This document shows, one piece after another, positions 21,318 through 24,133 of a stretch of 61,979 bases of DNA (position 1 is the stretch's first letter; every line of letters begins with the position of its first letter). The notes beneath the pieces were generated by a model. It was not told where the DNA came from, ran no database searches, and saw only the letters and a list, made by a program, of their open reading frames with translations. Both the position numbers and the translations under genes were made by a program. Origin of the DNA: Escherichia phage PhiR12_3. The stretch lies in sequence record PV340552.1; one strand, given 5' to 3'.

Positions 21318-21497
21318 GAGACCAGGCAGGGGAGTAATCTCCCGCCACCTCTGATGTGTCTGGCATCCTCAACGCACCCGTACTTTATTTGTCATATGCT
21401 CCGCAAAATGCAGGTTGTCGTTGCAACCAATGCGGTAATTTTTTGTGTGCGAGTGCTCAAAAAACGTTGATTTTCATAAAAGGATGATTTTATGCTG

Positions 21498-22083
21498 CCA
21501 GACCAGCGACCAGCGACCAGCGACCAGCGACCAGCGACCAGCGACCAGCGACCAGCGACCAGCGACCAGCGACCAGCGACCAGCGACCAGCGACCAGCGA
21601 CCAGCGACCAGCGACCAGCGACCAGCGACCAGCGACCAGCGACCAGCGACCAGCGACCAGCGACCAGCGACCAGCGACCAGCGACCAGCGACCAGCGACC
21701 AGCGACCAGCGACCAGCGACCAGCGACCAGCGACCAGCGACCAGCGACCAGCGACCAGCGACCAGCGACCAGCGACCAGCGACCAGCGACCAGCGACCAG
21801 CGACCAGCGACCAGCGACCAGCGACCAGCGACCAGCGACCAGCGACCAGCGACCAGCGACCAGCGACCAGCGACCAGCGACCAGCGACCAGCGACCAGCG
21901 ACCAGCGACCAGCGACCAGCGACCAGCGACCAGCGACCAGCGACCAGCGACCAGCGACCAGCGACCAGCGACCAGCGACCAGCGACCAGCGACCAGCGAC
22001 CAGCGACCAGCGACCAGCGACCAGCGACCAGCGACCAGCGACCAGCGACCAGCGACCAGCGACCAGCGACCAGCGACCAGCAG
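21498..22083. repeat. Heptanucleotide simple-sequence repeat (CAGCGAC)n, about 82 perfect copies
   Basis: Perfect 7-bp periodicity from 21504 to 22077 plus partial flanking units; no stop codons in any of three forward frames. Confidence 0.95.
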
Positions 22084-22171
22084 TAAATCAAGAAAGTCTG
22101 TAAAATCTGTTGAGCCGGAAATTACCGAACTGGCGAACTCATGGCTTAAATCTTACAGGCTTGATTACAAG

Positions 22172-24133
22172 TTGCAGAATGCATCACTTAACGGAGAGAT
22201 CGATAACGCACTGGACGCTTATTTTTCGAAAAATGGCGGCGCAGGCGGTAATCGTCCCGACGTAAAACTCCTTGTTAAGGACAAATACGGCAAGCAGTAT
22301 CCCGTTCTCATCGAGTATAAAGGCTACAAGGACAGGCTTATCAGACTTGGCAGCAACGGTATTATTGAGAACAAAGATGCCAGAAAAGAATGGAATTTTA
22401 AAAATATTAATGGATACGCGGTGAATGGCGCAGTCCATTATGCCAACGCACTTCTTCAGTTCACCAATTACCCTGATATTATTGCTATTGGTATGACCGG
22501 CTGGCGCGATGATGGTACAGGCGAACTGCATCATGAAATCGGCGTGTGGTACGTATCAAAGAATAATTTAGGAGCCGGACAGAAGGTTGGTGAATTCACC
22601 GACTTATCGTTCCTTGCTGACAAAAATGTTGATGGATTTCTCAACAAGATAAAGCTGCTTAATCTTCCTCCCGAAGAACTGGAAAAAATCAAGGCCAGCA
22701 AAGAGGAAGAGATAGACACGCGACTTTCCCGTCTGAATAACGATATTTACCAGAATGAAAAGGGGCTTGGTGAAAGCGATCGTGTTTACCTTGTTGTGGC
22801 TACCGTTATTGCAACGTTGGGGATTCCGGGAAAGTTAGCACCGCTGGATAAAAAAGAACTGACCTCTTCAACGGAGGAGGACTTGCGTGATGGTGATATT
22901 ATTTTCAGGAAAATAAGGAATTTTTTAAGGCTGAAAGCTGTTCCTGAAACAAAAAGAGAAATGATTTTGCGCTCGTTGCAAAATACGCTGTGGACTGAAA
23001 ACATTAACAAACCAGTCAACGGTGAAAGCCAGTTAAAGCGCGTGTTTGTTAAAGTTGTTGATGATCTTGGGGAGTATTACAAAATTGGACTGACCACCGA
23101 TTTTACGGGCAAACTGTTTAATGAGATGTATCGCTGGCTTGGATTTACGCAGGACAAGCTCAATGACGTTGTTCTGACACCACCTTATGTTGCCACATTG
23201 CTGGCACGACTCGCCAGAGTAAACAAAGATTCCTATGTGTGGGATTTTGCTACAGGTTCTGCGGGATTGCTTGTGGCTGCAATGAATGAAATGCTCATTG
23301 ACGCCAGAGAAAATATTCACTCACCGAACGAACTACAACTTAAGGAAGCGCAAATCAAGGCTGAACAGCTTCTTGGCCTTGAGGTGTTATCCAGTATTTA
23401 TATGCTGGCCATCCTGAATATGATTTTGATGGGGGATGGTAGCTCGAATATCCTCAATAAAGACTCGCTGGCCGATTTTGACGGCAAGTATGGATTTGGG
23501 AAAACAGGAGAAAAATTCCCTGCGGACGCATTTATTCTCAATCCTCCGTATTCAGCTAAAGGTAACGGCATGATTTTCGTGCAGAAGGCGCTGTCGATGA
23601 TGGATAAAGGCTATGCTGCAGTGATTATCCAGAGTTCAGCTGGCACAGGAAAGGCTACGGAGTACAACAAAAAAATACTCAAGGAAAATACCTTGCTGGC
23701 AAGCATCAAAATGCCTGCGGATCTGTTTATTGGTAAATCAAGCGTTCAGACGTACATTTACGTTTTTCAGGTAAAAATTCCGCATAACGCGAAACAGGCT
23801 GTTAAGTTTATCGACTTTTCCAATGACGGCTACGCTCGCTCTAATCGCAAAAAGGCAAGAAACAATCTTGTTGATGCCGATCGTGCAAAAGAGCGTTATC
23901 AGGAGGTTGTGGATCTGGTTCACTTCGGGAAAGGTTGCCTTAATATCTTTACGGAGGATGAATATTTTGAGGGAACAATCGATCCTGATAGTGGTGAGGA
24001 CTGGAATCAGACCAGGCCAGTAGATGCTAGGCCAACGCTGGAGGATTTCAAAAAGACGGTAGGTGATTACCTTGCATGGGAGGTCTCGCAATTACTGAAA
24101 AAACAAGGTGAAAACAATTTTGCGGGAAAGTAA
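22172..24133 (+). CDS. Bifunctional restriction endonuclease / N6-adenine methyltransferase (Type IIB/IIG, BcgI-A-like)
   Basis: 653 aa from TTG 22172; N-terminal RPD-x17-IEYK PD-(D/E)XK motif; motif I DFATGSAGLL then motif IV NPPY (gamma-class amino-MTase); reading frame is open upstream through the heptamer array to 21488. Confidence 0.75.
   Translation: MQNASLNGEIDNALDAYFSKNGGAGGNRPDVKLLVKDKYGKQYPVLIEYKGYKDRLIRLGSNGIIENKDARKEWNFKNINGYAVNGAVHYANALLQFTNYPDIIAIGMTGWRDDGTGELHHEIGVWYVSKNNLGAGQKVGEFTDLSFLADKNVDGFLNKIKLLNLPPEELEKIKASKEEEIDTRLSRLNNDIYQNEKGLGESDRVYLVVATVIATLGIPGKLAPLDKKELTSSTEEDLRDGDIIFRKIRNFLRLKAVPETKREMILRSLQNTLWTENINKPVNGESQLKRVFVKVVDDLGEYYKIGLTTDFTGKLFNEMYRWLGFTQDKLNDVVLTPPYVATLLARLARVNKDSYVWDFATGSAGLLVAAMNEMLIDARENIHSPNELQLKEAQIKAEQLLGLEVLSSIYMLAILNMILMGDGSSNILNKDSLADFDGKYGFGKTGEKFPADAFILNPPYSAKGNGMIFVQKALSMMDKGYAAVIIQSSAGTGKATEYNKKILKENTLLASIKMPADLFIGKSSVQTYIYVFQVKIPHNAKQAVKFIDFSNDGYARSNRKKARNNLVDADRAKERYQEVVDLVHFGKGCLNIFTEDEYFEGTIDPDSGEDWNQTRPVDARPTLEDFKKTVGDYLAWEVSQLLKKQGENNFAGK

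Follow-up and report, generated by a model that had tools for sequence, protein, structure and literature searches.

Repeat-mediated phase variation is regarded as a trait of small-genome pathogens, and the genome of Escherichia phage PhiR12_3 raises the question of whether a gene on an Escherichia prophage is switched in the same way. In the stretch of DNA analysed here (sequence record PV340552.1, 61,979 nucleotides; hereafter the window) a long heptanucleotide tract precedes a gene for a restriction-modification (R-M) enzyme, and an initial annotation had called this tract a candidate phase-variation switch. The proposal is supported by the hypervariability of the tract, by a conserved Shine-Dalgarno (SD) sequence and ATG before it, by an open reading frame that stays intact in all frames and by a variable homologous cassette elsewhere, and we hold with good confidence that the tract serves as the length-variable part of a translational phase-variation switch for a prophage BcgI-like R-M enzyme. 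The elements concerned are as follows.

21459..21491, + strand: leader of the proposed switch cassette, including the SD sequence AAGGA (21480-21484), recognised by its likeness to a plasmid Type III mod leader
21484..21486, + strand: ATG1, a possible further start in the second frame, to which GTG 21445 also belongs; the SD abuts this ATG
21492..21494, + strand: ATG2, the conserved start of the R-M polypeptide (ATGCTGCCA, with the tract next), in 28 of 28 loci
21501..22081, + strand: (GACCAGC)83 tract, length-variable element of the proposed switch (Tandem Repeats Finder; 16-120 units in 27 other loci)
22101..22103, + strand: TAA that closes ATG2 translation in the present OFF state (ORF list; the product is a 203-aa repeat peptide)
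22172..22174, + strand: TTG, the start chosen by automatic annotation, not conserved as a start codon (allele comparison)

The array had been described as about 82 perfect units. Tandem Repeats Finder gives a period of 7 and 83.0 copies for 21501-22081, with 100% matches, 0 indels and a score of 1162; GACCAGC is a rotation of CAGCGAC, and in the CAGCGAC register the tract consists of 82 full units (21504-22077) with a partial unit at each end. The tract starts 9 nt past ATG 21492 and its 7-nt unit is not a multiple of 3. Whichever forward frame is read, the tract peptide is a hydrophilic heptapeptide repeat, (DQRPATS)n. All six frames of the unit are free of stop codons, and the 205-codon ORF antisense to the tract is thus a trivial consequence. 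According to the ORF list and its translations, the GTG 21445/ATG 21484 frame stops at 22086 and the ATG 21492 frame at 22103, while the enzyme frame is open from 21488, has TTG 22172 as its first ATG, GTG or TTG, and ends at 24133, 653 codons from that TTG. These results agree with the initial description of three open forward frames, two ATGs with different stops, an AAGGA SD 7 nt 5' of ATG 21492 and an enzyme frame devoid of ATG, GTG or TTG before TTG 22172. With 83 units, the enzyme is out of frame, a predicted OFF state in this sequence.

The enzyme body and the gene that follows it comprise these features.

22082..24133, + strand: body of the R-M fusion enzyme (PADLOC REase_MTase_IIG, Pfam), here out of frame with both ATG1 and ATG2
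22259-22321, + strand: nuclease motif D59...E77-x-K79, invariant in 25 homologues
23243-23266, + strand: methyltransferase motif I, DFATGSAG, invariant in 25 homologues
23540-23551, + strand: methyltransferase motif NPPY, invariant in 25 homologues
24193..25287, + strand: ORF of the HsdS-like specificity (S) subunit (Pfam Methylase_S in two stretches; PADLOC Specificity_II)

Judged by its domains and neighbours, the enzyme is a fused nuclease-methyltransferase of Type IIG/IIB and is BcgI-like. The PADLOC profile REase_MTase_IIG matches along its whole length (E=3e-232, residues 9-674), and among 25 homologues Pfam N6_Mtase is matched in all and VRR_NUC in 22. A PD-(D/E)XK endonuclease and an N6-adenine methyltransferase are carried on one chain, with a separate HsdS-like subunit; the neighbours are hok and an esterase with no ATP-dependent translocase, and no helicase, HsdR or Res gene adjoins the R-M gene in the locus neighbourhood. 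A Type I identity was rejected, as TIGR00497 (the hsdM equivalog) gives 36 bits, below its cut-off of 242.75, HsdR is absent and the nuclease is fused to the methylase. A Type III identity was likewise rejected: here the methylase is followed by the HsdS-like S subunit, not Res, whereas in the Type III locus L055 mod is followed by a DEAD/DEAH helicase. The initial comparison with Type I/III switches thus stands for its slipped-strand ON/OFF logic but not for the enzyme, which is Type IIG/IIB. A sequence search of solved structures with the enzyme gave no match. For an AlphaFold model of moderate quality (pLDDT 63.5), a fold search of low confidence (TM 0.2-0.3) points to a methylase core and only a loose likeness to BsaXI, DrdV and BpuSI, with the BsaXI alignments (609-622 columns) among the longest. 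BcgI and BsaXI resemble the window's system in having an N-terminal PD-(D/E)XK nuclease, a gamma-class N6-adenine methylase, a separate HsdS-like subunit and no translocase; Type IIB is defined by cleavage on either side of a bipartite site, and the class assigned here is a predicted one. We know of no phase variation in either BcgI or BsaXI.

Whether the tract can control this enzyme depends on where translation begins. PGAP gives a 653-aa product from TTG 22172 in most genomes, and after the tract no other canonical start exists in the enzyme frame, as would suit a constitutive enzyme for which the tract is an upstream leader or junk ORF without control. We regard this as unlikely. The TTG is replaced by CTG or CTC in alleles B, C and D and in Salmonella, and it has merely a weak AGG 12 nt 5'. 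In the 75 nt that end at the TTG, moreover, synonymous changes predominate among the allele differences when these are read in the enzyme frame (in one example 8 against 5 non-synonymous), compared with 0-2 synonymous versus 11-12 non-synonymous in the other two frames, the pattern of 25 codons under purifying selection in the enzyme frame. Repeat-free homologues (677-689 aa, 72-73% identity; Neisseria, Providencia, Methylophilaceae) reach about 30 residues upstream of TTG 22172, and their N-terminus, M..S(V/I)EPxIADLANGWLKSY, coincides exactly with the exit of the enzyme frame from the tract (...SKSRKSVKSVEPEITELANSWLKSY). Because the junction evolves as coding sequence and the TTG is not conserved, this comparison implies that enzyme translation must begin at ATG 21492 and traverse the tract. 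PGAP itself calls a long fusion of 739 aa for the short, 16-unit tract of strain 04-00955, where it chose a GTG of the ATG1 frame as the start, and proteins beginning MLPDQRPATS... (P0006 and P0009) and MILCCQTSDQ... have been recorded by other sources.

ATG 21492 and its SD are kept in 28 of 28 loci, the leader is nearly invariant among 27 E. coli loci, and ATG2 is identical in a Type III mod cassette described below. As at contingency loci, the start lies 5' of the tract and no other conserved start occurs before the protein body. ATG1 is probably weak as a start; it is ATA in strain 48 and missing from the Type III mod cassette. An internal start may give a methylase-only product in the OFF state.

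The tract itself is hypervariable. A comparison of repeat number among homologous prophages, suggested initially as a check, found it far from invariant: its value in 27 further E. coli loci lies anywhere between 16 and 120 units and all three frames are represented, with five of the 21 uninterrupted tracts in the ATG2 frame, eight in the ATG1 frame and eight OFF. Prophages with no difference over 4.8 kb of flank are 2-33 units apart, and their predicted frame states also differ. In particular, sets with 0/4800 flank mismatches include G6/7, G8 and G1/2 with 83, 99 and about 93 units, four O111-type loci with 64, 58, 56 and 31 units, and OkiPb01692 and OkiPb01714 with 30 and 23 units. Tract length therefore varies among close relatives in which flanks and ORF are intact (28/28), again as at contingency loci. 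The two fusions foreseen in the initial annotation both occur in nature; alleles of 54, 66, 99 and 120 units read in frame from the equivalent of ATG 21492, the outcome predicted for gain of one unit, and alleles of 82, 79, 76 and 64 units from that of ATG 21484, as predicted for loss of one. Exactly 83 units are shared by the window and three assemblies (G6/7, UCPROB-002 and O111:H8 7-32 9A), so that either the number does not change with each passage or the strains have diverged only very recently. Four tracts (L008, L009, L017 and L025) contain 6-nt units or a poly-C run, apparent long-read assembly errors, and individual frame calls may therefore be wrong. Short-read assemblies are disrupted by the tract, which collapses to 3-22 units, and automatic annotation gives a wrong gene start and a spurious opposite-strand protein. 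Of 5426 complete E. coli genomes, 30 carry the R-M gene, which also occurs in Salmonella; carriers include O111:H8 strains, further isolates from humans and cattle and strains from the faeces of healthy people, and the window's leader is confined to the 29 genomes carrying the R-M gene.

Decay of cargo genes is common in prophages, and the same variation might be that of a functionless hypervariable minisatellite in a decaying, effectively dead gene. About three quarters of the clean tracts lie outside the ATG2 frame, the 5 of 21 within it also being compatible with a mostly silent gene, and in one strain (L017) IS1 interrupts the S gene. The remainder of the evidence makes such decay improbable. 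The ORF after the tract, 676-677 codons from the conserved VKSVEP motif, lacks any frameshift or stop in 28 of 28 loci regardless of frame state, including alleles with 3-14% protein divergence, and retains every catalytic motif; purifying selection acts on the junction, and SD and start codon are conserved. An even spread over three frames together with an intact ORF is the pattern of reversible contingency loci, and the homologous cassette drives an active methylase, M.Eco131I (PMC5909438).

The surroundings of the R-M gene bear on how a switch could act. In a lambdoid prophage, the R-M/S pair is flanked by the Q antiterminator and hok genes on one side and by the nanS-p esterase gene and the lysis genes on the other, in agreement with the original view that it is prophage-borne.

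20432..20962, + strand: Q antiterminator gene, just 5' of the proposed switch and its gene (Pfam Phage_antitermQ, E=1e-47)
20959..20986, + strand: promoter-like TTGAAA-16-TAGAAT, candidate late promoter pR' (consensus scan, 10/12 matches)
21162..21317, + strand: hok/gef-type toxin gene of a hok/sok module (Hok/Gef annotation in homologous loci)
25898..27871, + strand: nanS-p-like sialate O-acetylesterase gene, downstream edge of the cargo slot (Pfam DUF1737, SASA, DUF6645)

The Q gene is annotated as antiterminator Q in 27 homologous loci, and TTGAAA-16-TAGAAT, whose candidate role as pR' follows from its location after Q, is the sole promoter-like site in 20900-22300; a simple consensus scan of the same interval found no promoter for expression in the lysogen. 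The hok region shares 91-93% DNA identity with hokW/mokW/sokW regions of Stx phages, yjhS, a nanS-p homologue, comes after stx2AB in an Stx2a phage, and the window and phage PhiR5_2 are collinear from nanS-p onwards, across the lysis and terminase genes. By gene order, the pair occupies the slot held by stx in Stx phages. Upstream 7-bp repeats of the hmw genes of H. influenzae set promoter-gene spacing, and it is conceivable, though very unlikely, that the present tract acts on transcription in this manner, or as an N-terminal linker of tunable length, or by encoding the antisense 'YXWGXW repeat-containing protein'. Translation of the tract in each frame does yield a hydrophilic heptapeptide repeat and PGAP does annotate a minus-strand ORF across it. 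The tract, however, is downstream of the conserved SD and ATG and not between promoter and start, a pure linker would favour in-frame lengths and no such bias is seen, and the minus-strand ORF matches no NCBIfam family and has a length that merely tracks the tract. Neither single strand of the tract is more stably folded than shuffled sequence (MFE -4.7 kcal/mol; z = +1.3 and +4.4). Hairpin-driven instability of the tract was rejected on the same folding result.

The closest counterpart of the proposed translational switch is the STEC Type III mod gene M.Eco131I (ECSTECDG1313_5492; Atack 2018, PMC5909438), which has the identical CAGCGAC unit in the same register, the identical ATGCTGCCA start, an SD just 5' of that start and about 40 nt of leader akin to the window's. 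Leader 21459..21491 is identical to the Type III mod leader at 23 of 33 nt in an ungapped comparison, compared with 19/33 for the best of 20,605 control windows. Both tracts vary in length between strains, and each occupies the 5' end of an N6-adenine methylase ORF carried by an E. coli mobile element. The two loci differ in that M.Eco131I is encoded on conjugative plasmids of ~100 kb as a Type III Mod with a helicase-type Res after it, whereas the window has a nuclease-methylase fusion and an S gene on a lambdoid prophage, and in that the mod tract has 26 units as published and 35 in L055, as against 83 in the window and up to 120 in other strains. Downstream of the tract no clear similarity between the window and the M.Eco131I gene was found. 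Identity with the published STEC mod locus was rejected, as both published primers are absent from the window and mod is on plasmids. The M.Eco131I tract has mixed lengths within single strains by fragment-length analysis, the cloned gene product is an active methylase with target GCCATC, and the gene was published as the first case of repeat-mediated phase variation of a methylase in pathogenic E. coli (PMC5909438). The repeat had initially been called unusual in unit and copy number; the copy number of 83 holds, but the CAGCGAC tract has this E. coli precedent.

No third gene with the cassette was found: a pattern scan of metagenome contigs gave only this R-M gene (8 loci) and a cassette-pattern scan of 100,044 species-representative genomes gave nothing, while the tract-only pattern returned 27 loci in viral contigs, all of them this R-M gene or unrelated arrays, and unrelated high-GC taxa in genomes. 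A search of the literature on E. coli, prophage and Type IIG systems and on the repeat unit found no description of this locus. A broader reading, which we put forward tentatively and with some doubt, is that leader, ATGCTGCCA and (CAGCGAC)n form a self-contained cassette, open to horizontal exchange and placed on at least two unrelated R-M genes, that in the prophage this cassette controls one translational unit of the Q-dependent late region (the stx slot), with R-M as its product and possibly also an R-M-S fusion made by -1 frameshifting at G GGA AAG, and that the phage would hedge between a restricting/modifying and a silent state. It would cover both the Type III mod genes on conjugative plasmids and the Type IIG/IIB fusion in E. 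coli and Salmonella lambdoid prophages.

Among other known systems, Campylobacter jejuni has a phase-variable Type IIG enzyme, Cj0031 (Anjum et al. 2016, PMC4889913), which, as proposed here, is a restriction-methylation fusion with an ORF-internal repeat tract that gives ON/OFF states. It differs from the window in its homopolymeric G tract, chromosomal location and single chain without an S gene, and the sequence context is unrelated. Type III mod genes (tetranucleotide tracts) and Type I hsdM/hsdS genes (penta- or homopolymeric tracts) of Haemophilus, Neisseria and other bacteria follow the same logic, in which the number of repeats determines the frame of a methylase ORF (PMC1976455, PMC7383803). 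Unlike the window, these phasevarions involve other enzyme classes and shorter units and are chromosomal in small-genome pathogens. To our knowledge, Type I/III phasevarion tracts are all far shorter than 83-120 units. The main text of a survey of Type I phase variation does not mention Escherichia. In lic1A of Haemophilus influenzae, several start codons lie in different frames 5' of a CAAT tract, and by analogy the two upstream starts of the window, being in two frames, could allow strong, weak or no expression. In contrast to lic1A, ATG 21484 lacks conservation and its SD is badly positioned, and for this reason a three-level switch is doubtful here.

In the mechanism that we propose, ribosomes would initiate at ATG 21492 with its AAGGA SD, translate the tract as (DQRPATS)n and enter the enzyme body only when the number of nucleotides in the tract, and hence n, is divisible by 3. 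With n = 83 they would halt at TAA 22101-22103, leaving the nuclease-methyltransferase OFF. Gain or loss of 7-nt units at replication would shift the gene among three frames, an ON frame, an OFF frame and a third whose only starts, ATG 21484 and GTG 21445, are poorly placed and would give low or no expression. Loops of 7 nt exceed the size for efficient MutS repair, and slipped-strand mispairing is the likely source of length change. The predicted ON enzyme would bear a disordered N-terminal extension of 40-280 aa. Restriction and methylation would be switched together because they reside in one polypeptide, and a lysogen population would be mixed for phage defence and genome methylation.

This type of switch is already known on another E. 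coli methylase gene, and by its sequence this locus is a further case, the second E. coli methylase example beside M.Eco131I, with another enzyme class and its own nuclease. It is phage-borne, in a cargo slot otherwise used for Shiga toxin. If the locus does switch, lysogens would be mixed for phage resistance and m6A methylome, which would bear on horizontal gene uptake, on phage therapy and perhaps on gene expression. That two genes share the cassette suggests that hypermutable switches are modules able to pass from one gene to another, possibly as a portable unit.

The S subunit encoded downstream is probably OFF too at n = 83. Its reading frame (-1 relative to R-M) is open from 24112, and one further element lies at the end of the R-M gene.

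24124..24130, + strand: slippery heptamer G GGA AAG, in register and directly before the R-M stop TAA (24131-24133)

The heptamer suggests a candidate -1 frameshift site into the S frame. The Methylase_S domain match widens to profile positions 2-167 only when the frame is read from 24124.

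Tandem Repeats Finder delimited an uninterrupted heptanucleotide array (unit GACCAGC, equivalent to CAGCGAC) with 83.0 copies, 100% matches and zero indels, and the raw sequence, the ORF list and translation of all three forward frames defined its surroundings as follows:

21480–21484, plus strand: AAGGA
21484, plus strand: ATG, in the frame of GTG 21445, which stops at 22086
21492, plus strand: ATG, followed by CTGCCA and then the tract; its frame stops at 22103
21501–22081, plus strand: repeat tract
21488–24133, plus strand: third frame, open throughout, with TTG 22172 as its first start codon

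The initial annotation, which had described the array, the candidate starts and the frame ends, proved right in every detail checked against these analyses. The tract encodes the heptapeptide repeat (DQRPATS)n in all three frames, and the third frame continues into a nuclease-methyltransferase fusion gene (R-M gene).

To determine where translation of the R-M gene begins we compared it with homologues and other alleles. Repeat-free homologues from Neisseria, Providencia, a Methylophilaceae genome and metagenomes (72–73% identity, 677–689 aa, query fully covered) have an N-terminus, M..S(V/I)EPxIADLANGWLKSY..., that aligns to the window residues directly after the tract. Within the 75 nt ending at TTG 22172, differences between alleles are mostly synonymous in the enzyme frame and nearly all non-synonymous in the other two frames, and other alleles have CTG or CTC in place of the TTG. 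Public E. coli protein records open with MLPDQRPATSDQRPATS...KLRKAVKSVEP, and those in a second frame have the N-terminus MILCCQTSDQ.... To judge from these comparisons, the tract must lie inside the coding sequence, with translation starting upstream of it. Because of the homologue N-termini, the pattern of synonymous changes and the protein records, the TTG 22172 start looks like an annotation artefact, and constitutive initiation at this codon is contradicted by the conservation data. The same data contradict a role for the tract in transcription, as a protein linker or on the opposite strand. PGAP places the methylase start at this internal TTG or further downstream and calls a "YXWGXW repeat-containing" or hypothetical protein opposite the tract (21474–22091, minus strand); both calls appear to be artefacts caused by the repeat. 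ON and OFF alleles share a single protein accession.

The post-tract protein gave a Pfam match to N6_Mtase and a weak match to VRR_NUC, a PD-(D/E)XK nuclease family, and matched PADLOC REase_MTase_IIG over its full length (E = 3e-232). Its score against the NCBIfam hsdM equivalog model was 36 bits, compared to a cut-off of 242.75, and no HsdR or Res gene is present near the R-M gene. The gene that follows, encoding an HsdS-like specificity subunit (S), is matched by PADLOC Specificity_II and twice by Pfam Methylase_S. In an alignment of 25 homologues, D59, E77 and K79 (PD...ExK), DFATGSAG and NPPY are invariant, and VRR_NUC matched 22 of the 25 proteins. On this domain, PADLOC, hsdM-score, motif and neighbour evidence, the system is classified from its sequence as a BcgI-like Type IIG/IIB R-M fusion with a separate S subunit; the initial annotation had drawn a parallel to Type I/III modification genes, and as an enzyme the R-M gene product belongs to neither type. 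No solved structure related to the R-M protein was detectable by sequence search. A moderate AlphaFold model (pLDDT 63.5) matched Type I M subunits, with the longest structural alignments to the Type IIB enzyme BsaXI, resemblances that may lend loose support to this class.

The R-M gene is present in 30 of 5426 complete E. coli genomes, and 27 of these loci were compared together with the window (28 sequences). Across the 27 loci the tract ranges from 16 to 120 units while the leader before ATG 21492 is almost invariant. Translation of the 21 uninterrupted tracts from each start placed five in the frame of ATG 21492, eight in that of ATG 21484 and eight, the class to which the window tract belongs, in neither. 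The post-tract frame (676–677 codons from the conserved VKSVEP motif) and the catalytic motifs are intact in 28/28 sequences, and the reading that the R-M gene is decaying is contradicted by the conservation data. Repeat number across homologous prophages, one of the checks proposed in the initial annotation, varies widely between loci whose flanks show no mismatch in 2400 nt either side of the tract: 83, 99 and about 93 units in G6/7, G8 and G1/2; 64, 58, 56 and 31 in 2013C-3250, 7-58 72A, 7-15 45A and E2855; and 30 and 23 in OkiPb01692 and OkiPb01714. Three further assemblies share the window's count of exactly 83 units. A few tracts with 6-nt units or a poly-C run look like assembly errors, short-read viral and metagenomic contigs are broken at the tract or have it collapsed to 3–22 units, and a Salmonella enterica contig opens with the final tract bases followed by the R-M gene. 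OkiPb01692, OkiPb01696, OkiPb01714 and JNEC-KY171 each carry two R-M gene copies at different places, of which one per genome was compared. The heptamer GACCAGC also forms dozens of short scattered arrays on contigs of the Planctomycetota MAG maxbin.317 (L061–L125) and several in Marichromatium bheemlicum (L127–L133), which are unrelated to the E. coli locus.

In the mechanism we propose, translation would initiate at ATG 21492 and the R-M polypeptide would be made or not according to tract length modulo 3; at 83 units it would not be made. Units would presumably be gained and lost by slipped-strand mispairing. Loops of 7 nt escape MutS, and no stable hairpins formed in the tract strands. Restriction and modification would switch together, because nuclease and methylase reside in one polypeptide.

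A tract of this unit has a precedent. In STEC strain DG131/3 a Type III mod gene carries CAGCGAC[26]; cloned without its repeats, the enzyme (M.Eco131I) methylates GCCATC, and by fragment-length analysis individual strains contain a mixture of tract lengths (Atack et al. 2018, PMC5909438). The primers of that study are absent from the window; in eight complete genomes they map mod to plasmids roughly 100 kb in size. In p_STEC1585_1, mod (5' sequence TTGATTTTTATTGAGGGAAATTTTTATGCTGCCAGACCAGCGAC..., 35 units) comes after mobA and a relaxase gene and is itself followed by a helicase-type gene. The window and plasmid mod are identical in start codon, next two codons, unit and register, and in 23 of 33 upstream nucleotides (maximum of 19 among 20,605 control windows); window 21459–21500, comprising leader, start codon and repeat unit, is the counterpart of 5046–5087 in the plasmid mod locus L055. 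After the tract there is no clear similarity. Since ATG 21484 lacks a counterpart in the plasmid cassette and is ATA in strain 48, ATG 21492 is the conserved start. The switch looks, from its sequence, like a module moved between genes, and among the supported points the greatest novelty lies in one cassette being common to two R-M genes that are unrelated. Neither this type of switch nor the cassette itself is new; what is new is its presence on this class of gene, on a prophage and with a tract as long as 840 bp. No description of the window's R-M switch locus was found in the literature searched.

The junction between the R-M and S genes has the following features:

24112–24260, plus strand: junction region, with the -1 frame open from 24112 into the S ORF
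24124–24133, plus strand: 3' end of the R-M ORF, gcG GGA AAG TAA
24124–24130, plus strand: G GGA AAG, a canonical -1 slippery heptamer, in register

When translation of the S frame is extended back to the heptamer, which precedes every canonical start codon, the Pfam Methylase_S match rises from 71 to 87 bits, and only then does profile coverage extend from 24–167 to 2–167. All other alleles and homologues examined (L015, L016, L027, L040, L056, L187–L192) have an in-register slippery heptamer at most two codons from the R-M stop and S in the -1 frame, open across the junction, the heptamer being A AAA AAG in E. coli alleles B, C and D and in Salmonella, G GGA AAG in Neisseria, and G GGA AAA in Providencia and the Methylophilaceae genome. 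The arrangement suggests that a programmed -1 frameshift yields an R-M-S fusion and perhaps sets the ratio of R-M to S. Coupled re-initiation at S stays an alternative, as the S ORF has an ATG in two of the compared sequences. No literature on frameshifting at this junction was found. In six loci (L002, L006, L007, L008, L018, L022) PGAP annotates S in two parts, one an "incomplete" piece and the other a separate S CDS, a split that looks like an annotation effect because the L022 region is 99.5% identical to the window DNA with one frame open throughout. In L017 the S region is interrupted by IS1, and other alleles carry S proteins that are clearly distinct and differ in specificity.

The gene order around the switch is NinG, NinH, Q antiterminator, hok/sok, tract, R-M, S, nanS-p-like esterase, and lysis and terminase genes. 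In an Stx2a phage a methylase, tRNAs and stx2AB lie between Q and an esterase of this kind; the R-M module therefore occupies the position downstream of Q that is the classic cargo slot of lambdoid phages. The sole promoter-like site found (20959–20986) lies directly after Q. The hok/sok-type toxin-antisense module (20980–21390), between Q and the switch, is 91–93% identical to hokW/sokW of Stx phages, and a related module sits near the other genome end in phage 933W. O111-type prophages with the R-M system (L005, L006, L007 and L018; positions 1–834 of each locus) also encode com and mom, a second DNA-modification function that acts by adenine methylcarbamoylation; these genes lie a short way upstream of Q, a few genes from it, where the window has a toprim/DUF7146 gene instead. 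Other tandem repeats in the window, at 43461–43560, 30774–30843 and 41516–41541 (a perfect 48-nt duplication of 2.1 copies, 12/24-nt repeats and a 9-nt triplet), probably fall in structural or tail genes.
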